Of a DNA stretch of 64,000 nucleotides, positions 284 through 46,102 are shown one piece after another. How positions within the stretch are numbered: the stretch's first letter is position 1; each line of letters begins with the position of its first letter. The stretch is from assembly GCA_964571255.1 (NCBI GenBank), contig CAZNAA010000001.1, forward strand, positions 16,167-80,166, given 5' to 3'. Origin of the DNA: an uncultured Gammaproteobacteria bacterium (lineage in GTDB: Bacteria; Patescibacteriota; Microgenomatia; Levybacterales; UBA12049). The position numbers were made by a program, and so were the translations under genes. The notes beneath the pieces are model-generated. The model made no database searches. It was not told where the DNA came from and saw nothing but the letters and a program-made list of their open reading frames with translations.

Positions 284-1795
284 TTATCTTTCAATTTGAG
301 GATACGTATCGTATCTGAGAACATAGGTTCTTACTTGAAGTCCAGGGGAGAATTGTTTGAGTTCTACTCGTTGATAATTTTTATCTAAATAATCAATAAT
401 TTTTTCTTCATATCCTTGATCATAGGAAAGCACGACATAGACCTTGCTATATGTTCTTTTATATCTATCAAATTGTTTCTTTAAGTTTTCCTCAGTAAAA
501 GGAGGGATTGATCCTTCCGTAAATCGATTCCAGTGAGGAATCGTATCTATTTTAGTAATTCCTTGATACGAATACTCAATAGGATAAATGGTAAAAGGAG
601 CAGAAACGGCAATGATATCTTGAGGTGTGGTGTATTCTCGAAGATAGGTTGTGACATCTTCATAATCTTCCTTCACTGGAGTTTTGAGAGAGATATTTTG
701 ATATAAAAGTAATCCAAACATAATTCCAGTAAATGAGGTAATAAGAAGAGCTGAGACTTTTTTGCTATAACTCATCATCATCCAAGCTAAAACAAAGAAA
801 AGGGATGGAGTGACAAAGATAAGGTATCGGGAAAGAAAAATTGGCCTAAAATAGGAGGCAAAAAATACCATAATAATAGGCAAGAGAGTAACAAGAAGGA
901 AATATTCTACTTTATAAATGGGAACTTTACGTCTTTTGGTAAAAATGAAAAACAACATGAGAATAGCAACAGGCCATAAAGAAACGAGTGCGGCTTGAAT
1001 TCCATTCGTTTGAAAGCCAAAGAGGAAGTTTACAAATACTTGGAATATATTGTAACTGGTAGGAGGAGGGATAAGTGGCTTGGTATTTGAAGCAGATCCA
1101 CTAGAGATGACAAAAGCAACCCAGGGAACAAAAAAGATATATGCTCCTAAAAGACTTGTTAAAAACCTTCTGAAAAATGCTAGATTTTCTTTTCTCAGTA
1201 GTTTATCTTTTTGTGGGAGTAACACTCTGGTATAAAGAATAAAGAGCCCTTGAGTAATAAGAAGAAAGTTAAAAAAGTAATGGGTATATAGCCCCAAAAT
1301 AGTGCTTATGATATAGGCGAATCGATACTTTGTGCCACCAGTTTTTTCCATTCGAATAAAAAAGAAATGATTCAAACTGGTAACAAAAGTAAAAAGAGTA
1401 TACATACGAGCCTCATTGCTATACCAAATAACAAAGGGAGATAAAGAGAAAAGCAAGATAGTAACGATTGCCACTTTCTCATTACTTGACTCTTTAGCAA
1501 AGCTAAACAACACAGGAAGAGTGAGTAAGAAGAAAATGAGAGACAGCATACGAGCAAAGAAAATATCTGTTCCAAAAATTTGTAGCCAGAAATGAAGAAG
1601 CATATGATACAAGGGCACGTGGACGTCTTGGGCAATAAATTGTAAAAGAGTAGGAACTGATTTTGTTGCGTCCCAAATGGATTGAGATTCATCAAGTCTT
1701 ATGGATTGAGAATAGAGAGTAATCAGACTTATAGCACATGCAGCTCCTGCGATTAAAAAGAAGAAAACTGAATAAAGGACTTTATTTTTAAACAT
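284..1795 (-). CDS. GT-C type glycosyltransferase, family 39 / ArnT-PMT-like (polytopic membrane protein)
   Basis: 503 aa with about 11-12 hydrophobic helices and a DE motif in the first loop (RLDESQS). C-terminal soluble domain. Sits adjacent to the GT2/GH8 genes. Confidence 0.55.
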   Translation of the reverse strand: MFKNKVLYSVFFFLIAGAACAISLITLYSQSIRLDESQSIWDATKSVPTLLQFIAQDVHVPLYHMLLHFWLQIFGTDIFFARMLSLIFFLLTLPVLFSFAKESSNEKVAIVTILLFSLSPFVIWYSNEARMYTLFTFVTSLNHFFFIRMEKTGGTKYRFAYIISTILGLYTHYFFNFLLITQGLFILYTRVLLPQKDKLLRKENLAFFRRFLTSLLGAYIFFVPWVAFVISSGSASNTKPLIPPPTSYNIFQVFVNFLFGFQTNGIQAALVSLWPVAILMLFFIFTKRRKVPIYKVEYFLLVTLLPIIMVFFASYFRPIFLSRYLIFVTPSLFFVLAWMMMSYSKKVSALLITSFTGIMFGLLLYQNISLKTPVKEDYEDVTTYLREYTTPQDIIAVSAPFTIYPIEYSYQGITKIDTIPHWNRFTEGSIPPFTEENLKKQFDRYKRTYSKVYVVLSYDQGYEEKIIDYLDKNYQRVELKQFSPGLQVRTYVLRYDTYPQIER

Positions 1796-1804
1796 AGTGG
1801 TTTT

Positions 1805-3313
1805 TTATGCTAATGCGGCTTCCTTTCGAGTAGCAGGGATCCAGTTCATTGAGGCTGTGATGAAGGGAATAAACATACTAATATTAAAAAGTGCCCAGGC
1901 AATATTGGTAATAATTGATGGGTTCATTCCTTCTCGATTAATAGCAATACTCATTCCTAAAAAGACTGCCACAATATAGAGCATATGTGGATACGCCAGG
2001 AAAATGAAGTTCCCAGTTTGTGCTTGTTTAGGAGTTACTGAGAAACTCATCTTTTGTCTAAGAATAATAGAACGAAGAGCACGTAGTTGAAGAGTGAAAC
2101 TAGCTGTTGAGAAAGACATAGCTCTAAAGGTCACATTTTGTCCCGTCACTATATAAAGAAGCAATAGATTTACAAACATGAAAGGAAGGAAGAAAAGAGC
2201 AAAACTAGTTGTCGTTGCAGCTACAGGTTGAACTCCTGTGAAGAAAAAGAGAAGTGGCATCATCATATCAATAAGAATAATAATTCCATTTAAATAATAC
2301 ATTCCAGAGGATAAGTATTCAATTTTTTGAGAAAAAGTTAAGCCCTTTTTAAAAAATGGATTGGCACTGAAGAATACTTCAAGTGATCCTCTTGCCCATC
2401 TCAACTGTTGTTTGTAATAAGACATTAAATCACTTGGTGCTAAACCTTTGGCCAAGACTTGAGGAAGATAGTGAGATTGCCAGCCTTTTTGGTGAATACT
2501 AATAGAGGTAATAAAATCCTCAGCAATACTTGTTTCATTCATTCCACCAGCTTGGAGAAGGGCAGTTCGTCTGATAGCAACGTTTGTTCCACAAATAAAA
2601 GCAGAGTTAGTAGTATCTTTTCCAACCATAATTGGTCCAAAGAAAATCTCTTGCTGCTCCCACGCTCCAGCAGTTACTTCGTTTTCTTCATAATTTTCAT
2701 AGTACTGAGGAGTTTGGACAAAACCTACGTTACTTTCTTTGAAATAAGGAATAACTTTTTGCAAAAAGGTTTTATCAGGAACCATATCTGCATCTAAGAT
2801 CATAACAATTTCTCCTTTGGTCTCAAAAAGAGCGTGGTTAATATTCCCAGCCTTAGCTCCACCTGGAGTAGTTCTGGTAATACAGGTAATATCGAACTCT
2901 CTGGCCAAATCTTCCATTTCTTCCCAATTACTTTTATTTGCAACTAATCCATCATTCAGAATATATACTTGGTGATTTTCATAGAGCATTCGCTTTGCTG
3001 CCTCTACTGTTTTTCGAACCACGTCTTTTGGTTCTCCACAAACAGTAATAAACACATCAACTGAGGGTTTAAACGTAGTAGAAAAAGTTATCTTCTTACT
3101 CAACTTTCTTTTTCGTGGCCAGACAGTATGCCAAAACATGAACGCCATGAGGACGTGATATAGTTCTCCAAAGAAAAGAAGAGAGTAAAGAACAGGATGT
3201 CCAATATGACTTGGATAGAACCACCAAGAAATATAGATAAGAGACATCACAACTGCTGCAACAATGGATGCTTTGGTAATTGTTCCTCGTGGTATTTTTG
3301 TTTCTTGCTTCAT
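1805..3313 (-). CDS. Family 2 glycosyltransferase, cellulose-synthase-like (BcsA/CESA-like, no PilZ)
   Basis: DADMVPD (DxD), QTPQ and QQLRWARG (QxxRW) motifs. Two N-terminal and about four C-terminal TM helices. Confidence 0.75.
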   Translation of the reverse strand: MKQETKIPRGTITKASIVAAVVMSLIYISWWFYPSHIGHPVLYSLLFFGELYHVLMAFMFWHTVWPRKRKLSKKITFSTTFKPSVDVFITVCGEPKDVVRKTVEAAKRMLYENHQVYILNDGLVANKSNWEEMEDLAREFDITCITRTTPGGAKAGNINHALFETKGEIVMILDADMVPDKTFLQKVIPYFKESNVGFVQTPQYYENYEENEVTAGAWEQQEIFFGPIMVGKDTTNSAFICGTNVAIRRTALLQAGGMNETSIAEDFITSISIHQKGWQSHYLPQVLAKGLAPSDLMSYYKQQLRWARGSLEVFFSANPFFKKGLTFSQKIEYLSSGMYYLNGIIILIDMMMPLLFFFTGVQPVAATTTSFALFFLPFMFVNLLLLYIVTGQNVTFRAMSFSTASFTLQLRALRSIILRQKMSFSVTPKQAQTGNFIFLAYPHMLYIVAVFLGMSIAINREGMNPSIITNIAWALFNISMFIPFITASMNWIPATRKEAALA

Positions 3314-3316
3314 ACT

Positions 3317-4492
3317 TTATATGGGTTTAATACCGTTGTTATATAATGCAGTTCCAAACCAAAGCCAGTTTTGTTCATAGTAGGGAACGTCTTCTCTAAA
3401 GGTATTGTTATCATTTGAGTACAACTTAATGATTTTATCCTCATAGATTCTTTTAGCTAAATCTGGTTTTACGATCATGAAATACCCTAGACTGGTTGCA
3501 TACATTGTGGCGTTTTCTCCACTTAATCTTTTTCCATCTCGAGAATACGATCCAGCTAGTTTTCCTTCATTGTTATATTCACTTTCCAAAAAAGAAAAAG
3601 CATTGGCTAAATACGTAAAAGCTCTTTCTTCTTGATTCCATTGATAGTCAAGAGCAATTCTCCAGGGTGTTCTGATAGCATCAAAAGAGTAGTTGGTAGT
3701 CAGTCTGTCAATATACGTAGGTTTAATTGATCCATCTGATCGGTATAAAGAAATCCAATCTGGGGGAAGTCCAACAGGAGATTGAGTATCAAGAGGAACA
3801 ACTCGTACCTCTTCAAGAAGATCATAGGCTGGGTCAATCAGGCTATTCCAATCTCTTTCTTTATCAACTTGTGCAAATATTCTCCAAGCGTAGGGGGCAA
3901 AATAAGAAGGATTAATAACTAAAATGTCTTGGCTTTTTGCCCAGTTTCCTGCTACTAAATAATTTTTATTATCCTTTGTTTCTCCTACGTTATACTTCCA
4001 CAAATCAGCAAGAATCTCTTTTGCACTGTCAATATATCTCTCATCTCCCCATCTTCTTCCCGCAAAAATAAGTGCTAGGGCAATGTCCTCATCTGCATCA
4101 CTTGCATTGTTATTCCCGCCATCCTCTAAAAAGTCATATTTTCCGTTACTTAACTTACCCCATTTCCATCCGAATAGTTTATCTTCATCTCGTCTTAAGT
4201 TATCCTGAGTCCATTTCCAGACCGTATCAAATGTATCCTTGTCATCAACCCACACAGCACGAAGGAGAGCATAGCTTTGTCCCTCAGACGTTGTGATCTC
4301 TTGCTGGGTATAATCCACGACTCGTCCTTCAGGAAGAATGAATTGCTCTTTATATTTTTCCCATGAAGAAGTTAAGATAGTATGGGAAGAAAATGGTCTA
4401 TTTACACTACTATATCTGCTGGTTCGATACACCACAGTAATACAGATCATAATACTTAAAGCAATAAGGAGGTATCCAATAATTTTACGCAT
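3317..4492 (-). CDS. Glycoside hydrolase family 8 endoglucanase (BcsZ-like), N-terminal membrane anchor
   Basis: Perfect match to the GH8 signature [19 protein letters not shown], plus [12 protein letters not shown]. Single N-terminal TM. Confidence 0.78.
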
Positions 4493-5129
4493 TTTCTCCT
4501 TCCTTTCTCTTTTTTTTCTTGAGGAAAATAAAGAGTTTTTTCAGTCCGTGATCCACACTAGTTTGGACACATAATAAGCCAACAACAAAGCTAGCTAGAG
4601 ATAATCGGAGCATTCCTTGAATTTGATCAGTAGTAATATTACTATCTTTATATAGTTGTTGCCCAAAGGAATAGACGAATCCATCAGGAGCATTAATTGA
4701 TTGCAGGTATGTTTCGTCTACACTTAATCTTGGAGTAGGAGATGTCTTTTTGGGAGCTAAATTTAAGGCTTGTAAAACGGTTTGACGAACAGATGCAGGT
4801 TGCACTTGTGGTTGAGGTGTAGGAGTAGGACGTGTTGTATTTCCACTTTGTCCAGGAGTAGGTGTTACAGGTGGAGTAGTCACTTCAGGGGTGGGAGTGG
4901 GTGTAGCCGTTGGTTCCGGTTCAGGGGTTGGAGTGGGAGTGGGTGTAGCCGTTGGTTCCGGTTCAGGGGTTGGAGTGGGAGTGGGTGTAGCCGTTGGTTC
5001 CGGTTCAGGGGTTGGAGTGGGTTCCTCTTCTTGAGCAAAAACAAAATCAATAAGAGGCACCTGTGCATGTACTGCCCGTGCTAAAAAAATGACACAAAAA
5101 AAGCCAATAAGTACTGATCGTAATTTCAT
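4485..5129 (-). CDS. Secreted Pro/Thr-rich repeat protein
   Basis: Signal-peptide-like N-terminus. Three tandem [14 protein letters not shown] repeats. Overlaps the GH8 start by 8 nt, consistent with an operon. Confidence 0.5.
4903..5028. repeat. Three copies of a 42-nt tandem repeat (encodes [14 protein letters not shown])
   Basis: The direct repeat ggttggagtgggagtgggtgtagccgttggttccggttcagg is visible three times. Confidence 0.85.
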
Positions 5130-5220
5130 ACCTGCCTGAATACTAAAACATTATACTATAAGTTGTGTATGAAAAGCAATATAGAAGTGTAAGAAACATT
5201 TATAAGATACTTTTCTTCTC

Positions 5221-7398
5221 CTACTTACAGGTGTTTGTATAGGTATTGATAAGTTTCATTTTGTTATCCCAAACACTTGTCCAATCATCTTTTAGGATTC
5301 CTCCTGTGTCAGTAGAGTTAGGATTAAAACTCCAGTAAAAGGAATTACAAATACCTTTTTTTGTAAAGTAAGAAGTAAGTGAGTCTTGCAATATTACATC
5401 TTTTTGATCACCTGATCCGTATTTTCCACCCCATTCACCAGGAACTATTGTGTACCCTTTTTCTACTGAGAAGCCGAAATGAGTATCCCAGAAAGAGGTC
5501 ATGTTTGATGGGAAGTTAGGGGCGGTAAAATAGACTTGTTGATAGACGTCAGGTCCATAGACGTGAGGAGAAAGGACCAGCTTGTCTTTAGGAAGTGAGA
5601 GAGGCGTGCACTTCAGTGGTTCAAAGTTCCCTCCCATCCAGTGACCATAATCAGTTGAACAACTTGGGTTTTCTTGAATTCCTTGAACAAATAAGAGAAG
5701 ATTAGGATTGGCGATAAGTACTGCTTTACCGGCTTTCTCAGAAGCTGTGTTCCAGTCAGTTTGTGTATTTCCTACTCCCCAGGTTGCTTTTCCATGTGGC
5801 TCATTTTTTAAATCAATCCCTAAGAAGTATTCAAGATTTGCATAACGTTTGGCAACAAGTTCCAAGTCAGAAATCCATTGAGATTCAGAATAAGATGGGG
5901 TATACCATAATTCAGAAATAGCTTTACAGTCTGGGCGGTGGTGATCAAGTAAAATATAAAATTGTTGAGTATTTAGTTCCTGGATAACTTTATCAAATAG
6001 CTGAAGACTGTTAAGTCCAACGAGATCTTTATTTCGATCATAACTAATTCCTGATACTCCTTGAGAACGGAGTGTATCTGGACAAAATGGAACTCTGACT
6101 GCATTAAATCCAAGGGATTTCATTTGAGAGATATACTCTTTCCAATTCCGTACCCATAGTCCGTGGATGCTATGCGTTTCGGTTTCAAATCCAAACCAAT
6201 TAACTCCTTTGAGAGTTATTTGACTTCCGTTTTTATATATTTTGTTATTACTCACGCTATAACCTGCTGATTGCGTGAGAGTAGGTGTAATTGTGGGACT
6301 TATAGAATTTGAACTATTGGTTGAGAAAGAGAGGGAATCAATCATAAAAACCTGTTGATTTTTCCCACCTGTTTCCTGGATGGCTAATCCTTTAATACTT
6401 CGTCCCTCTGCTTTAAATGAGGAAAGAGGAAGAGTTACTTGCTTCCAAATATTTTTTGAAATTGTTCCTAACGGGACACTTGGGGAGGTAGGGATATTTT
6501 CTTCATCGAAAAGAAGAACGCTTAATTGGGTATTGTCTTGAGTGGGGTTAATGGTAAATGAGAGAGTGTCTCCTGTTTTGGTAAGAATGGGTTGCTCTGT
6601 ATGTACATATAGTGCACCCCACCCATTTGCAGATACTTTAAGTGAGGTATTAGTATTGTATCCAGGATTAGTTGGTGAAATAGTTGCACTCCAAGACCAG
6701 TTAGAAAAATTACTGGAGAGTGATTCGTCAAAGATCATTACCCCACTGCCTGTTGGGCTAGTGCTAGGGGGAACTGCTGCCTGGGAAATAAGTGGGGTAG
6801 GAGTTGGCGTTGCTGTTGGGAGAAGGTGAGGATAGGTAAGAAAGATTTGATCTAAGTAGATGGATTGATTACTTCTTCCGGCTGTTTCTTGAAGTGCTAT
6901 TCCTGTAATAGTTGAACCTTGAGGAAGAATATCTGAGAGAGGAACAGAGTAAGACCTCCAAGTGCTCGCACTCAAAGCTTCTCCAAAAGAATCAAGTTTA
7001 GCATCTTTAAGTAACAGAGTATTGTCTTTCCCGTACAGGAGAAGGCGAATTTGTGTATCTTCCTGCCCACTTCGAGCTTGAAAGGTAAGTTTCATACTTT
7101 TCTCAACGACAATAGGAGTATCCGTATGAAGGTAAAATCCTCCCCAAGGTGCAAGTTGGGTATTTATGCTATAGGAACCATCTGGAGAAATAGAAGAAGT
7201 AAAGGATGTAGTAGTACTCCAAGACCAGTTCATAAATTGGGAAGAAAGGGCATTATCAAAGATAGGAAGACTTACCGTTTCTTCAACGGCAAGAGCTTGA
7301 AAAATGTATTGTTTTGTATTTGATCCAAAAAGAAAAAGAGCTATCAAAGAAAAGAAGAGAAAAGTAAAGAGGAAAGGTGTAAGAAAGCGTCTAACCAT
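5221..7398 (-). CDS. Glycoside hydrolase family 5 cellulase with two N-terminal CBM-like modules
   Basis: GFNAVRVPF, LLDHHRPD, LKNEPHG (acid/base NEP) and PGEWGG (nucleophile). Two internally repeated ~150-aa modules (FD.SLSS.F.NWSWS...) joined by a PTATPTPTP linker. N-terminal TM/signal. Confidence 0.75.
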   Translation of the reverse strand: MVRRFLTPFLFTFLFFSLIALFLFGSNTKQYIFQALAVEETVSLPIFDNALSSQFMNWSWSTTTSFTSSISPDGSYSINTQLAPWGGFYLHTDTPIVVEKSMKLTFQARSGQEDTQIRLLLYGKDNTLLLKDAKLDSFGEALSASTWRSYSVPLSDILPQGSTITGIALQETAGRSNQSIYLDQIFLTYPHLLPTATPTPTPLISQAAVPPSTSPTGSGVMIFDESLSSNFSNWSWSATISPTNPGYNTNTSLKVSANGWGALYVHTEQPILTKTGDTLSFTINPTQDNTQLSVLLFDEENIPTSPSVPLGTISKNIWKQVTLPLSSFKAEGRSIKGLAIQETGGKNQQVFMIDSLSFSTNSSNSISPTITPTLTQSAGYSVSNNKIYKNGSQITLKGVNWFGFETETHSIHGLWVRNWKEYISQMKSLGFNAVRVPFCPDTLRSQGVSGISYDRNKDLVGLNSLQLFDKVIQELNTQQFYILLDHHRPDCKAISELWYTPSYSESQWISDLELVAKRYANLEYFLGIDLKNEPHGKATWGVGNTQTDWNTASEKAGKAVLIANPNLLLFVQGIQENPSCSTDYGHWMGGNFEPLKCTPLSLPKDKLVLSPHVYGPDVYQQVYFTAPNFPSNMTSFWDTHFGFSVEKGYTIVPGEWGGKYGSGDQKDVILQDSLTSYFTKKGICNSFYWSFNPNSTDTGGILKDDWTSVWDNKMKLINTYTNTCK

Positions 7399-7537
7399 AG
7401 AGGAGGTTCATCCTACCATCTACATTTAGTGTTTGTCAACCTCACTTACTGCCACAGGTAGAGTGAGAAGAGCGACTTGACATATGATAATTATAGGATA
7501 TAATACTCAAAGACTATATATCTTATAGCATTATATT

Positions 7538-8695
7538 ATGAGTTTAAAAAAGTCATTTGTAATTTTCCTCTCAAGCGCGTATGTTGCGTTTCTTTTGTTC
7601 CAAATGTTCACACCTCGTGTTCCTGTTTCTTCGTTTTTTGAGGCTGGGAAAAAGATTGAATGGCCAGCTACAATTGATGGACTTGAATCTACTATTGATC
7701 TTCCTTCATGGAATATGGCGCCTGACTTTTATCCACTTAATACTCCTATTACTCCAAGGATTCAAATTGAAAATCCAGCATCCAATAGTGCAGTGACAAA
7801 AACGGTTTATTTATATGTGAGTAAGGTACTAGAGTCTCCAAAAGGAACAGACGTCACGTCTGGATATCCAGGTCAATTAGGACTAACACAGGATGAATTG
7901 AATACAAATGAGCAAAGTAAAAATGATGTACAAGAAGTACCAACGGTGTATACCGTTGGAGATATTACTCTTCAACCTGGTACTTCAACGTCAGTTTCTT
8001 ATACTTTTACGCCTCCAACTGCAGGATACTATCAGGTTGATTTTAGTACACTTCCTCCAGGACAGGGGTATATCCATGGCTATATCTTAGCTGCAGGATT
8101 TATTAGAGTTCTTCCGGTAACGACAGCAGAAGTTACTCCAACACCAAGTAACCCTCAACCAACTGCAACTCCTACTCCTGGGCAAGCTGGCCAAACTCAA
8201 GCTGCAACTACTTCTAGCAATGTGAATGTAGTTACTGGACAAGTTGCCAGTGCTGTCTTGACTCAGTCAGTTGCTCTCCCAAGAACAGGGAAAGGGGAGG
8301 AAACTTACGAAGTAGGGAATTTTATGCTTAAAAAACATAGTTATCTTCTGATTTCTGATCTGGATTTGATAAAACCACTCTATGCTGGATCACTAAAAAA
8401 TAACACCTTTGTTGTTGGTAAAGGACTTGTTAGTGATATCAACACTGATACAACCAGGGTAATGTATGGACATAATACTACAGACGTATTTGGCAATATC
8501 CACACACTCACGAAAGGGAAAACGATTAAAGTATATGAAAATGGAGAAACAACTACCTATTCTGTAACTTCTATCAAGAAAGTATCATACGAAAATGTGA
8601 AAGCTTTACAAGGCGGAAAAGACACATTGCTTCTTATTACCTGTGACCTTACAGATTCTTCAATAAGAGTAATCATTACAGCAAAGAGAATTTAA
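7538..8695 (+). CDS. Surface protein with C-terminal sortase catalytic domain preceded by an LPRTG motif
   Basis: N-terminal signal anchor and a PT-rich linker. VALPRTGKGEE is followed by a sortase-like domain with the conserved His (VMYGHN), the TLLLITCD Cys motif and a C-terminal Arg (IRVIITAKRI). Confidence 0.6.
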   Translation: MSLKKSFVIFLSSAYVAFLLFQMFTPRVPVSSFFEAGKKIEWPATIDGLESTIDLPSWNMAPDFYPLNTPITPRIQIENPASNSAVTKTVYLYVSKVLESPKGTDVTSGYPGQLGLTQDELNTNEQSKNDVQEVPTVYTVGDITLQPGTSTSVSYTFTPPTAGYYQVDFSTLPPGQGYIHGYILAAGFIRVLPVTTAEVTPTPSNPQPTATPTPGQAGQTQAATTSSNVNVVTGQVASAVLTQSVALPRTGKGEETYEVGNFMLKKHSYLLISDLDLIKPLYAGSLKNNTFVVGKGLVSDINTDTTRVMYGHNTTDVFGNIHTLTKGKTIKVYENGETTTYSVTSIKKVSYENVKALQGGKDTLLLITCDLTDSSIRVIITAKRI

Positions 8696-8737
8696 TTTCT
8701 TTGCCTTTTTAGCTTCAGTTTCAACGTGTTATACTAA

Positions 8738-14293: not shown

Positions 14294-16261
14294 TTATTCA
14301 TAATTTACTACTTGATAAAGAGTGTAGGAAGAGTTTGAAAAGATTGGGGTAGCAAGTTCTTCTATATTACTATTCTTGCCTTTAGTGAGAAGATATTTGA
14401 TTCTGTGTTTTACAAAAAAGTTCTTGATCTCTTTTTTCTTTTCCTCAAAATGAATATCACTTTCTGTAAGAAGCATATAGGTACTTATATTTCCTATTTC
14501 TTTTAATCGCTCTTCTCTTTTTGCGCTCGTGTACGTATGATTTACAAATTGAATATATCCTCTCTTATTAGCAAATGCCGTAGCAATTGGTCTTTCTCCA
14601 AAGTACCAGTTACTTACCTCCTGCTTTGTAGGAGGGGTAGAAAACGAAGGAAGTTCCAAAAGAATATCAGTAGATACTCCCTGCTTGGCTAGAAAGAATC
14701 CTGCTTCAACAAGAGGGGGATTATACGCTGCATAAGGGACTAGTGTGTAGTTATAAAGAGTGATACTTGCAGTTGGAAGAGTAAAGAGAATAAGAAGAAA
14801 AGAGAGAATTCCTTTTACGACAAGTGATTTTATTTGTTCTGAGAGTACTCCTATACCAAGTGCACTAAGAAGTGAGCAGAAGAATAAAAAGTACCATTGC
14901 AACTGAATCATTTCATAGACTTGTCCAGATTGAAGAAAGAAAAAAGGAAGAAGAAAAGATAGTGAGCTAGTAAGTAAAAGGAAAATGGTGAATTCAGTAG
15001 GATAACTTCGTTGTGTTATGGCTTTACGTAGGAGAGCAATTATTCCAACAATTCTTGTTCCTACGTTGCCTATAAGGAAAATAAATATTCCAACGATATA
15101 TGTTATCAAAAGGCCTTTAAGTACTCCTTGTTGTGAATACGTGTGTATTTTCTCTGTGTATCCATACCATGTTTGATGTTCTTGAAACATTTTCTCAATC
15201 ATCCAAAATGGATGAAATAAAAGACGGGAGGAAGAATCGGCAAAGACACCATATGTCAAAAGAGTTAGGAGAAATATCCCTCCAATACTTATAAGAAGTT
15301 CCCACTGTCTTTTATACAGGTAATAGAAGAAGAATAATCCCATGCTACTTAGTACTATCATTCCTGCATACGCTTTAAACATAAAAAGAAGTCCTCCACA
15401 AAGAGTGAGGAGTATAAGCCAGCCCTTATGCTTCTCCTTTTCAAAGGCATAAAAACAATAGAAAAGAAAAGTGACCAGAACTATGGAAAAAGCGAAGGGA
15501 GGATTGAATAGTGCCTGGATGGGTTGATCAACTCCGAAAAAAGAGGTAAAGGCAAACGGTTGTCTCAAAAGAGGAAGAAAGAAAGGAAAACTTCCTCCAA
15601 AACAAGTAAAAAAGATTCCCCAGAGTCCTACGGAAATTTTCTTTGTCATTTTAAAAAGGAGTGTATACACTCCACTTGTCCAGAGAAAGGCAGTAAGGAG
15701 AGGAAAATACTGGAAGAGTAAACGAGTGGGATTTTCAAAGTAATTAAAACGGGAAAGTAAAAAATTATAAAAAAAATGATACCCGCTTAATGGTGCTTCT
15801 GCAAATCCCGGAATATCTGGAGGAAAGTGATTAGAGAGTTCGTTAATCAGTTGCAGATGCCAAATCCCGTCTCCTGCGTTTACTCCTTTGAGATAGAGTT
15901 CTCCATGAAATAATCCACTGGTAAGCATAGGAAGAGAAAAAAGAATAGTTGCTCCAATAATAAAAAGGAGAGGGAGCAGTACATCATTTTTCCATACAGG
16001 AAAAAGAAGTTCTTCTTTCCATAAAGAAAAGGTAAAGAAGATAGAAAGAGGAAAAAGAAAAAAGGAGGGAATATGAAAGAAAGAAAGAATGTAGGAAAAA
16101 ATAGTAATAAACAATAGTCCAGTAACACAGCTAAGAAAGATATCTTCAAGAAATAGAAAGCGTTTCTTAAAAAGCAAACAGAGGAAATACTTTCCAGAAA
16201 GGTAGATAAGATAGTAAAGAATAAAAAGAAAAAAGATATCTTGCCCAATAGTATCACTCAT
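14294..16261 (-). CDS. Large polytopic membrane protein, possible GT-C glycosyltransferase; function unknown
   Basis: 655 aa with more than 12 hydrophobic helices and a C-terminal soluble domain. No diagnostic motif recognised. Confidence 0.35.
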   Translation of the reverse strand: MSDTIGQDIFFLFILYYLIYLSGKYFLCLLFKKRFLFLEDIFLSCVTGLLFITIFSYILSFFHIPSFFLFPLSIFFTFSLWKEELLFPVWKNDVLLPLLFIIGATILFSLPMLTSGLFHGELYLKGVNAGDGIWHLQLINELSNHFPPDIPGFAEAPLSGYHFFYNFLLSRFNYFENPTRLLFQYFPLLTAFLWTSGVYTLLFKMTKKISVGLWGIFFTCFGGSFPFFLPLLRQPFAFTSFFGVDQPIQALFNPPFAFSIVLVTFLFYCFYAFEKEKHKGWLILLTLCGGLLFMFKAYAGMIVLSSMGLFFFYYLYKRQWELLISIGGIFLLTLLTYGVFADSSSRLLFHPFWMIEKMFQEHQTWYGYTEKIHTYSQQGVLKGLLITYIVGIFIFLIGNVGTRIVGIIALLRKAITQRSYPTEFTIFLLLTSSLSFLLPFFFLQSGQVYEMIQLQWYFLFFCSLLSALGIGVLSEQIKSLVVKGILSFLLILFTLPTASITLYNYTLVPYAAYNPPLVEAGFFLAKQGVSTDILLELPSFSTPPTKQEVSNWYFGERPIATAFANKRGYIQFVNHTYTSAKREERLKEIGNISTYMLLTESDIHFEEKKKEIKNFFVKHRIKYLLTKGKNSNIEELATPIFSNSSYTLYQVVNYE

Positions 16262-43827: not shown

Positions 43828-44811
43828 TCTTTAGGTTTATAAGCTCTTTAACAATCGAAAAGTGGTAGGGAATTTAAGAATTTGGACTTCCCTTATCAGT
43901 TACGCACTGATATTTTTTGTCCTTATTCATTGATAGAGAATAAAAACTCTGTCATATTTTTTTGAGAATTTGATCCTGGTTCAGGATGAACGCTGGCGGC
44001 GTGCCTTAGGCATGCAAGTCGAACGAAAAAGTCGCAAGATAATTTAGTGGCAGACGGGTGAGTAACGCGTAGGAATCTACCCCTGGGAATCGCATAGCCC
44101 TCCGAAAGGAGGGGTAATACGATATGGTCTCGCAAGAGTAAAGGACTTAACGGTCCGCCGAGGGAGGAGCCTGCGTCCTATCAGCTTGTTGGTGAGGTAA
44201 TGGCTTACCAAGGCGATGACGGGTAGCTGGACTGAGAGGTTGATCAGCCACAACTGCACTGAGACACGGGCAGTACACCTACGGGTGGCAGCAACTGGGA
44301 ATATTCGGCAATGGACGAAAGTCTGACCGAGCGACGCCGCGTGGAGGAAGACGGCCTTCGGGTTGTAAACTCCTTTTGCCAAGCCCTTCACGGCTTGGAG
44401 AATAAGCCTCTACTAACTACGTGCCAGAAGTCTCGGTAATACGTAGGAGGCAAGCGTTATCCGGATTTATTGGGCGTAAAGTGTGCGTAGGCGTTCTTTC
44501 AAGTCATGGCTTAAAGACCGGGGCTTACCCTCGGATTTGGTTGTGATACTGGGAGAATTGAGGATTGACAGGGGTGCTGGAACAGTTAATGTAGCAGTGA
44601 AATGCGTTGATATTAACTGGAACACCGATGGCGAAGGCAGGCACCTGGGTTATTCCTGACGCTGAGGCACGAAAGCTAGGGGAGCGAAACAGATTAGATA
44701 CCTGTGTAGTCCTAGCTGTAAACGATGTCCGCTAGCTATCACTCACCAAGGATACAAGGGAGTACTTTGTATTTTTAGTGAGTGGTGGTGTAAGCTAACG
44801 CGTTAAGCGGA

Positions 44812-44871
<60 letters not shown>

Positions 44872-44989
44872 CCGGTGGAGCGTGTGGTTCAATTCGAGAC
44901 AAAGCGAAAAACCTTACCAAGGTTTGACATCTTACCGTTTTATACCTATGGAAACACTGGTAGATCCGAAAGGATGGTAAGACAGGTGT

Positions 44990-45024
<35 letters not shown>

Positions 45025-45321
45025 CCCTTAAGTGGGGAAACGAGCGCAACCCCCGCTGAATGTTAAATATTCATTCGGGACAGCCCCAATTATTTGGGGA
45101 GGAAGGAGGGGAAGACGTCAAGTCAGCACGGCCCTTATACCTTGGGATACACACACCCTACAATGGCGAATAACAACGTGTTGCTAGCAGGTAACTGCAT
45201 GCTAATCACTTAAATTTCGCCTCAGTTCAGATTGAGGTCTGCAACTCGACCTCATGAAGTCGGAATCGGTAGTAATCGCGGATCAGAAGGCCGCGGTGAA
45301 TACGTTCTCGGGTCTTGTACA

Positions 45322-46102
45322 AATTAAATGCGCCTGGCAGTTTAAAAGACAAGATGGTGAAAATCCATCCTAGTAGTTGAAGAACAGGACCTCTCTTGTA
45401 AAAGAAGGTCTGAAGGGTTCGATGTAACGAAGAGCAGCCTAGATATAAAAAAGTGTTTCGACTCTTAGGTGTACTAAGAGGAAGAAAACAAGAAAAGCTT
45501 TTTAGGATGTTTGAAATTGTTTTTTAAATGACCCAGGGAGATCCTATACTGACAGAACACATAATTGAGTATAGGAAGTCAGCTGATTCCATAGTATTTA
45601 AATAGGTGTATACTTATTTAGAGAAGGGATGAACTCTAAACTAAATCCATATTATCTTGTTGGTTTGGTAGATGGAGAAGGATGTTTCTGCGTTTCTTTT
45701 AACAATCATAAATCTCATCGATTAATTGAAGTAAGACTTCTTTTTGAAATTGAACTTCGAGAAGACGATAAAGAGATTTTAGAACGAGTAAAAGAGACTC
45801 TTGGTTGCGGTAATATTTATTATCTTAACTATAAGCGATATCAAAAATGGAGACCTCACTATAAGTATAAGGTTTCTAACTTAAAAGATATCACTGAGAA
45901 AATTATTCCTTTTTTTACTACCTATCCTTTACAAGCTAAGAAAAAGGAGAGTTTTAATAAATTCTCTGAGGTTGCAAAGCTTATGCTTCGTAAATCTCAT
46001 CTTAGTGAAGAAGGTATTCAACATATAAAAGATTGGCAAGAGACTCGCTGGATGCGGGAAATCCGCACGTCCAGTGGGGAGGAACAGGTTTCTGATTCCA
46101 AT
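45322..46102 (+). mobile_element. Putative self-splicing intron in 16S rRNA (inserted between CTTGTACA and CACCGCCCGTC, E. coli ~1391-1393)
   Basis: The conserved string TTGTACACACCGCCCGTC is split at this point. The insert carries a homing endonuclease ORF. Boundaries are approximate, within about 2 nt. Confidence 0.6.

Follow-up and report, generated by a model that had tools for sequence, protein, structure and literature searches.

The gene and its product

The 64,000-nucleotide stretch of DNA analysed here, referred to as the window, covers positions 16,167 to 80,166 of contig CAZNAA010000001.1 (assembly GCA_964571255.1), deposited as an uncultured Gammaproteobacteria bacterium and assigned in GTDB to the Patescibacteriota (Microgenomatia; Levybacterales; UBA12049). 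We focus on one of its genes, which joins in a single polypeptide an N-terminal cargo domain, an LPRTG sorting-type pentapeptide and a sortase catalytic domain, and which may encode a self-processing cassette. Sortases are membrane-tethered enzymes that act in trans on substrates held by a C-terminal membrane segment, and in conventional sorting this hydrophobic segment and a charged tail hold the precursor at the membrane. The gene and its product are organised as follows.

7538..8695, forward strand: fusion open reading frame (ORF), cargo-LPRTG-sortase, complete, 385 amino acids (aa), starting at the first ATG past the upstream stop codon
7538..7633, forward strand: probable N-terminal signal peptide, aa 1-32, with its core at aa 3-21 and a putative cleavage site between VSS and FFEAG, placed by homolog alignment
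7634..8116, forward strand: cargo, a beta-sandwich N-terminal domain (N-domain), aa 33-193; mean predicted local distance difference test (pLDDT) of 90.2 in AlphaFold2
8117..8218, forward strand: Pro/Thr-rich (PT-rich) low-complexity linker, aa 194-227, evident from the sequence and with pLDDT below 50 over its modelled part
8219..8275, forward strand: pre-motif block NVNVVTGQVASAVLTQSVA, aa 228-246, a degenerate copy of the family block in alignments A1 and A2
8276..8290, forward strand: LPRTG sorting-type pentapeptide, aa 247-251, with a putative scissile bond T250-G251
8291..8323, forward strand: spacer KGEETYEVGNF, aa 252-262, counterpart of the family acidic stretch and KLPSGN, devoid of a hydrophobic segment
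8324..8692, forward strand: sortase catalytic domain, aa 263-385, in which beta1 is aa 263-272 (Pfam PF04203, E=2.3e-14)
8471..8473, forward strand: catalytic His312 (YGHN), invariant in 44/44 aligned family members
8642..8644, forward strand: catalytic Cys369 (LLITCD), invariant in 44/44
8666..8668, forward strand: catalytic Arg377 (IRVII), invariant in 44/44

An earlier note on this DNA had described a signal anchor, a domain of about 230 aa, a PT-rich linker and a sorting motif lying directly upstream of a sortase fold. The landmarks on which it relied, namely, VALPRTGKGEE, VMYGHN with His312, TLLLITCD with Cys369 and the C-terminal Arg377 (IRVIITAKRI), are all present in the ORF, and the linker is found at aa 194-227. 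The folded part of the N-terminal domain is shorter than described, about 165 aa (aa 33 to ~193, pLDDT 90), and for the N-terminal hydrophobic segment a cleavable signal peptide is a likelier identity than an anchor: it can be aligned to the signal peptides of homologs with a conventional sorting signal, such as P0002, where cleavage would fall between VMA and QNSASAFFEAG. The length of the hydrophobic core does not discriminate between the two, as fused and conventional sortases overlap at 16-21 residues.

In a hydrophobicity scan, aa 3-21 formed the sole hydrophobic segment of the protein, and none was found 3' of LPRTG or anywhere else past aa 21. The C-terminus is that of the sortase domain itself, ending in IITAKRI with no positively charged tail. 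The protein therefore displays two of the four features of LPXTG-anchored proteins (signal peptide and LPXTG), lacking the membrane segment and the charged tail, in agreement with the earlier statement that this is not a conventional sorting signal. The TIGR01167 sorting-signal model gave no reported match for this protein, and its homolog P0002 scored near the threshold (15.5 vs 15.9).

The sortase domain and its predicted structure

The completeness of the sortase domain, asserted in the earlier note, is borne out by profile hidden Markov models (HMMs): Pfam Sortase PF04203 reaches 53.6 bits, where 26.6 is its gathering cut-off, and TIGR01076 (sortase_fam) scores 47.0 against 39.35. The NCBIfam class models stay below their cut-offs (class C, 35.5 vs 160; D, 18.1 vs 165; F, 15.9 vs 166), and the same scan of the protein gave no reported match for classes A, B, E and GN. 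Judged by these profiles, the protein belongs to the sortase superfamily (MEROPS C60) but to none of the curated classes A-F/GN.

The AlphaFold2 model of aa 208-385, built with the 44-sequence family alignment described below, has a mean pLDDT of 84, exceeding 90 across the barrel (aa 263-385). Foldseek matched it to sortases of classes C, A and E with probability 1.0, and query template modelling (TM) scores were 0.5-0.6 for many sortases of known structure. Class C enzymes bearing a lid match best, with 171-176 of 178 residues aligned, and PDB sequence matches of the domain are to class C and class A enzymes.

Residues 238-262, which include LPRTG, have pLDDT values of 73-86, versus less than 50 in the preceding PT linker. 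The pre-motif block reaches about 52-78, with a short helix predicted at aa 238-243, and isolated beta-bridges occur at A246 and Y257 in the model. With its predicted order, the helix and the bridges, this region is predicted to pack onto the sortase domain. From the pentapeptide it is 62 residues to the catalytic His and 119 to the Cys, and the twelve residues between G251 and beta1 are, in our judgement, geometrically enough for the motif to reach the active site.

There is no membrane anchor beside the catalytic domain: the hydrophobic stretch at aa 3-21 is about 240 residues upstream, past a folded domain and a linker, and the hydrophobicity scan revealed no hydrophobic segment adjoining the catalytic domain in any fused family member. 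This protein is thus not a normal membrane-tethered, multi-turnover sortase.

A family of fused cargo-motif-sortase proteins

Relatives were collected solely from an exhaustive phmmer search of 1.84 billion representatives, which gave 123 matches. Word-indexed profile searches returned 3 matches with alignment A1 as query and 8 with the trimmed A2, and it was the exhaustive search that served to define the family; the PT-rich low-complexity sequence included in A1 may have dominated the word index, though the trimmed A2 fared little better. The sortase-matching proteins form two groups. The first comprises ordinary membrane-anchored sortases of 130-250 aa. The second consists of secreted proteins with an N-terminal hydrophobic segment only and a C-terminal sortase domain, mostly of 350-626 aa, together with several shorter calls or fragments and one cargo-less member of 216 aa.

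About 44 proteins are laid out alike: a signal peptide precedes a cargo that varies, and a conserved block and L-[P/A]-x-T-[G/A/S] lead on to the sortase. The conserved module reads N-x-N-P-L-[IV]-x-G-I-[KR]-x-S-[YF]-G-G-x-[VI]-L-G-x-x-T and leads directly into the pentapeptide, which is followed by about 10 residues, then [KN]-L-P-[ST]-[GN]-N, and then beta1. The window copy of the block can be aligned with this consensus, in degenerate form. Although the 44 aligned members are only 22-33% identical to the window protein, the catalytic His, Cys and Arg are invariant among them, and the motif columns are well kept: L in 35, P in 27 and A in 9, a variable third position, T in 43, and G, A or S in 20, 19 and 4, respectively. 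A strict [LM][PA].T[GAS] match occupies the expected place in 31 of the 44 proteins and turns up once elsewhere in 17,237 residues (about 30-fold localised), and the spacing from the Thr to the catalytic Cys has a median of 121 residues (range 103-130). Scored with an HMM made from A2, the window ORF reaches 150.9 bits (E=1.4e-45, profile positions 2-165), a value that is partly circular, since A2 contains the window segment and its 93%-identical ortholog.

The cargo regions vary across the family and include fn3 domains, Cys-rich DUF4215 domains, PT linkers and unassigned domains. P0055, a complete protein of 216 aa, carries signal peptide, block, LPQTA and sortase, with no cargo domain. Taxonomy was drawn from a subgroup of 12 sequences with the motif E-L-x-x-T-A-E, for which nine loci were found in GTDB genomes: seven are labelled Candidatus Shapirobacteria or Microgenomates group, and the other two uncultured Gammaproteobacteria, labels that we suspect to be wrong. 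Database names of family members are merely "sortase", and full-text literature searches found no published description of a natural sortase bearing its own sorting motif, an absence that is no proof.

Covariation between motif position 5 (G/A) and the residue after the catalytic Cys (D/S), compared by eye, proved not strict and therefore unusable, with LAKTG and LAQTG proteins carrying TCS and LPxTA proteins carrying TCD.

Three further observations concern this family. At L004 9461-10627, the called protein P0048 (208 aa) begins within an fn3 domain, and the stop-to-stop frame is 388 aa long, so the gene call is probably truncated at its N-terminus; other short members in the databases may be similar miscalls. 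At L006 9487-10092, on the reverse strand, a 201-aa sortase-like ORF that an HMM matches weakly (E=1e-4) has neither the His nor the Cys of the active site (..LIFASPNFSLFG..) and, from its sequence, may be a sortase pseudoenzyme, located in a Shapirobacteria genome about 3 kb from a fused sortase. Finally, the family profile aligned residues ~42-80 of PDB 8T28 (A. oris SrtC2), VLGASTELPKTGEED, which belong to an N-terminal extension, to AVLEANNHVPTGAGSS; the pre-motif block could be homologous to class C N-terminal regions, or the alignment could be spurious.

A close ortholog and relatives with two genes

The one close ortholog, P0001, is 93% identical, has the same architecture and is found in two ENA assemblies (L001 and L002). 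The window protein itself is encoded on a 772-kb NCBI contig, and the 385-aa ORF is thus present in three independent assemblies. P0001 carries LPKTG, which departs from the window motif in a single residue, K for R at the free position 3. The earlier note had made its interpretation depend on conservation of LPxTG among homologs, and such conservation is found, both in this ortholog and in the family at large, where the Thr and the small residue after it each occur in 43/44 proteins. Relative to L001, the ratio of non-synonymous to synonymous substitution rates (dN/dS) is 0.075 over the whole gene, 0.041 over the cargo part and 0.125 over the sortase part; with dS at about 0.45, these values indicate that both halves are under purifying selection.

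With regard to the cargo, about 35 of the 123 phmmer matches hit the N-domain only. Its fold matches in the PDB are weak and of a generic beta-sandwich type (TM ~0.4), with no match to CnaA or CnaB, and a pilin cargo forming self-polymerising pili is not supported. Many of the N-domain-only homologs have a classical sorting signal at their end, with ..VLGAST-[LMFY]AxTG, a hydrophobic segment and a basic tail in succession; in the conventional substrates of related organisms, the context is, for example, GQVLGASTLAATG, then the membrane segment and the basic tail. Other N-domain homologs (P0006, P0014, P0016, P0022, P0025, P0027 and P0034) lack an LAxTG end and have a hydrophobic C-terminus with conserved cysteines (..C.....W.CRYF...), which, on sequence grounds, may be a different, undescribed anchoring signal.

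In four distinct relatives (L003, L014, L016 and L020; L019 stems from the same organism as L003 and is counted once), the gene for the N-domain protein directly precedes a distinct sortase gene, which overlaps it or lies 27 nt away. These N-domain proteins carry LANTG, LAATG, YAATG or LADTG with a membrane segment and a basic tail, and the separate sortases have an N-terminal basic region and a membrane anchor. Where the relatives have a pair of genes, the window has one fused gene, so that one polypeptide does the job of two.

The fused gene probably did not arise by simple read-through between an N-domain gene and its neighbouring sortase, as its sortase module is nearer to the fused family (33-40% identity over ~175 aa, E down to 8e-16) than to the TCTG..DSxR sortases of the relatives (29% identity over 77 aa with that of L003). 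Sequence comparison makes module replacement or domain shuffling the more likely origin. The shift from LAxTG in the conventional homologs to LPxTG tracks the type of sortase attached.

Gene neighbourhood

The surroundings of the fused gene include the following features in the window.

284..7398, reverse strand: divergent conserved cluster of PMT_2, cellulose-synthase-like GT2, GH8, PT-repeat protein and GH5 cellulase genes
7477..7504, forward strand: sigma-70-like promoter TTGACA-16-TATAAT, 34 nt 5' of the start codon, proposed from a consensus match only (12/12)
8681..8704, forward strand: terminator-like hairpin over the stop codon, likewise proposed from a consensus match only

The full set of cluster genes is also present in L003, the GH5 cellulase in L014 and L020, and the GH8 and cellulose synthase in L016. 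In L003/L019, L014 and L020, the GH5 cellulase adjoins the gene pair and is divergently transcribed. Given this repeated linkage of the cellulose-synthase/GH8/GH5/PMT_2 cluster to the N-domain and sortase cassette, the cargo may have a cellulose-related surface function. Motif and HMM searches found no other sortase and no conventional sorting-signal protein in the 64-kb window.

Downstream of the fused gene sits a CorA gene. At other family loci (L004-L006, L008-L013, L015 and L017/L018), a DcrB-like gene lies directly 3' of the fused sortase, often overlapping it. It occurs with at least three motif subgroups and encodes a protein of ~165-190 aa with an N-terminal membrane anchor and a weak Pfam DcrB match, a possible partner or acceptor of the fused sortase; no homolog was found in the 64-kb window at E<=1. 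Five of these genes are located as follows.

L006 6507-7025: DcrB-like gene
L008 6498-7013: DcrB-like gene
L004 10630-11127: DcrB-like gene
L015 916-1485: DcrB-like gene
L017 4223-4783: DcrB-like gene

In other respects, a 214-aa ORF at 4485-5129 on the reverse strand, between the GH8 and GH5 genes, has a signal peptide and a C-terminal hydrophobic segment with a tail, and includes a perfect tandem repeat (4891-5021, 42 bp x 3.1). A 222-aa gene occupies the same position in L001 and L002, the correspondence being one of position. The window also contains a 16S rRNA gene on the forward strand (43958-45369; 1,412 nt, spanning the full Rfam model), and no 23S rRNA gene was detected in its 64 kb; we suspect that the genome is one of the Candidate Phyla Radiation.

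A proposed self-processing cassette

We tentatively propose, at somewhat less than an even chance, that the gene encodes a self-processing cargo-LPxTG-sortase cassette. The protein would be exported by the Sec pathway and its signal peptide removed, leaving a soluble extracytoplasmic chain composed of the beta-sandwich cargo, PT linker, LPRTG and sortase. The sortase domain, through Cys369, His312 and Arg377, would then attack the T250-G251 bond, 12 residues upstream of beta1, either in cis or between two copies, and form a cargo-LPRT thioacyl enzyme. A cell-surface amine, most likely that of a peptidoglycan stem or cross-bridge, would resolve the thioester, though the acceptor may instead be water or a protein partner, for instance the DcrB-like product. 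The cargo would thereby become covalently fixed with the sortase domain as leaving group, each enzyme performing one turnover on its own cargo. A cut after T250 would yield peptides ending in ...VALPRT and a new N-terminus, GKGEETYEVGNF.

Several features favour self-processing. An uncut pseudo-substrate would be expected to lose the scissile Thr and the small residue after it; both are kept, and the motif is thus conserved as in a substrate. The VLGxxT context is shared with true substrates, the enzyme is intact, with its His, Cys and Arg, and the fused gene replaces both partners of the two-gene cassette. Furthermore, membrane retention is absent on either side, and engineered sortase-LPXTG fusions do self-cleave (PMC2901362).

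Other points weigh against this proposal. The cargo-less P0055 is hard to square with cargo anchoring and fits a regulatory role better. We would also argue that a single-turnover enzyme is costly for a small genome and that, once the signal peptide is gone, nothing keeps the protein near lipid II. The DcrB-like gene present at most other family loci is absent from the window, and part of the system may be missing here. Lastly, this exact cargo is shared by one ortholog only, at 93% identity.

The main rival, which we consider rather unlikely, takes up the second proposal of the earlier note, a pseudo-substrate regulating the enzyme: the block and LPxT[G/A] would occupy the substrate groove as a lid and hold the enzyme closed until a partner arrives, being cut rarely or never, and the enzyme would act in trans on other proteins with its N-terminal domains as a stalk or targeting module. 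The position of the motif agrees with such a role. In class C sortases, the lid anchors are Asp81/Trp83 in CdSrtA (His160, Cys222) and Asp58/Trp60 in SpSrtC1 (His131, Cys193), that is, 71-79 residues upstream of the His and 133-141 upstream of the Cys, roughly equivalent to the 62 and 119 residues counted here (PMC11231552). The near-complete alignment with lid-bearing class C structures and the predicted order of the motif region point the same way. In addition, the block NxNPL[IV]xGI[KR]xS[YF]GG occurs only in fused sortases and is absent from conventional substrates, so it looks like a part of the enzyme, and P0055, devoid of cargo, retains both block and motif. However, no DP[W/F/Y], the lid motif of class C enzymes, occurs between aa 200 and 263 of the window protein, where LPRTG holds the roughly equivalent position. 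The near-invariant Thr and small residue, with a free position 3 between conserved ones, follow the pattern of true substrates, and an authentic motif bound next to an intact Cys, His and Arg should be cut. The lid also sits uneasily with a gene that stands for both substrate and sortase with no other substrate nearby, and with a catalytic domain that has no adjoining membrane anchor.

It is still less probable that LPRTG serves another sortase, in that a housekeeping membrane-anchored enzyme would read the motif, anchor the N-domain and release, perhaps activating it, the sortase domain. The motif and the VLGxxT context do match those of conventional substrates of related organisms, and a second sortase may exist outside the 64-kb window, since the sortase family is reported to be near-ubiquitous in Microgenomates (PMC6744442). 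On the other hand, the hydrophobic segment and charged tail are absent from all 44 members, the dedicated neighbouring sortase gene of the relatives is missing from the window, and LAxTG gives way to LPxTG in step with the type of sortase attached.

Very improbable and strongly disfavoured is the idea that the motif has no special role, the protein being a sortase with a long stalk and a fusion relic or chance pentapeptide, or else an assembly or frameshift artefact: the degenerate block of the window protein and the single ortholog with the same cargo are compatible with it, but chance is contradicted by an expectation of 0.02 LP.TG per protein of this length and composition, by a position conserved over 44 proteins of about 25-30% identity (T in 43, 31 in-place matches vs 1 elsewhere) in columns that are not low-complexity, and an artefact by the same ORF in three independent assemblies, with a dN/dS of 0.075 and an ortholog motif that varies at its free position only.

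Taken as a whole, the interpretation given in the earlier note, of a motif acting in cis as substrate or lid or serving as a pseudo-substrate, is partly supported; the recurrence of the layout in a family and the conventional sorting signals of N-domain proteins elsewhere had gone unnoticed there.

Possible significance

Extended from this gene to the family, the self-processing proposal becomes more speculative, and we advance it as a possibility that we would put below evens: the fused proteins may be natural autocatalytic cassettes, in which a single-use sortase cuts its own LPxTG between Thr and Gly, transfers the cargo to an extracellular amine and is discarded. Such a device would provide membrane-independent covalent surface attachment in bacteria of the Candidate Phyla Radiation (CPR) and represent a bacterial counterpart of Hedgehog-type autoprocessing. 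As the enzyme is not tied to the membrane of its producer, the acceptor could even be host-cell peptidoglycan, the cassette then acting as a covalent grappling hook for an episymbiont.

If self-processing is true, it breaks with the paradigm of membrane-tethered sortases acting in trans, in that a conserved natural family unites the cargo, its motif and the sortase within a single secreted polypeptide, and neither side is retained at the membrane. As the layout recurs in about 44 proteins, each cargo may carry its own attachment enzyme. It would also show how surface display can work in ultrasmall CPR bacteria, in which sortases occur unusually often (PMC6744442) and whose envelopes and host attachment are poorly understood. 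For biotechnology, it would offer naturally evolved, compact (~120-aa) sortase modules that ligate themselves, recognise LPxTG and LxxTA motifs and bring a docking block along, and that correspond directly to STEPL and the self-cleaving tags made in the laboratory. Should the motif be a lid instead, the enzyme would be the first of the sortases to be controlled by a true mimic of its substrate.

Comparison with known systems

The nearest natural counterpart is the two-gene cassette of L003/L019, L014, L016 and L020. It shares with the window gene the cargo domain (~50% identity), the GH5/GH8/cellulose synthase neighbourhood, a sorting pentapeptide, the enzyme superfamily and the catalytic triad. 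The pre-motif context is VLGxxT in the relatives versus a degenerate VLTQSV in the window, and the pentapeptide LAxTG versus LPxTG. The neighbouring sortases are of the TCTGFLDSxR type, whereas the window enzyme is of the TCD...IRV type of the fused family, and the window protein, a single chain, lacks both the C-terminal anchor and tail of the substrate and the N-terminal anchor of the sortase.

Within the PDB, the window protein resembles most closely, in structure as in sequence, the class C (pilin-polymerising) sortases, such as C. diphtheriae SrtA (5K9A/6BWE), A. oris SrtC (2XWG/8T28) and S. pneumoniae SrtC (2W1J/2W1K). Like the window protein, they have an ordered N-terminal extension just upstream of beta1, at a comparable distance from the His and Cys. 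In contrast to them, the window protein has an authentic-looking sorting motif in place of DP[W/F/Y], scores far below the class C cut-off (35.5 vs 160), lacks a flanking membrane anchor and carries a cargo without the CnaA/CnaB pilin fold. The top PDB profile match is B. anthracis SrtA (2KW8/2RUI, E=1.7e-15), in which an N-terminal appendage touches the active site and tunes the access of substrates to it. This appendage is not a sorting motif, however, and the enzyme is membrane-anchored and multi-turnover.

In Hedgehog proteins, the C-terminal catalytic domain (HhC/Hint) forms a (thio)ester at the C-terminus of its cargo, which it passes once to a nucleophile. The likeness to the window protein is a functional analogy only, as fold and chemistry are unrelated.

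In engineered proteins, STEPL, attributed to Warden-Rothman (2013), reportedly consists of target, LPXTG, linker and SrtA, in the same order of parts as in the window protein. Engineered SrtA-LPXTG-target fusions (Mao 2004, BISOP) self-cleave at the correct site (PMC2901362). These constructs and the window protein have in common that enzyme and recognition motif reside in one polypeptide. The self-cleavage of the former is experimental, whereas the window family is known here from sequence and models. The engineered fusions are laboratory constructs that employ S. aureus SrtA under Ca2+ control, while the window family is natural and exported, and possesses an extra conserved block ahead of its motif.

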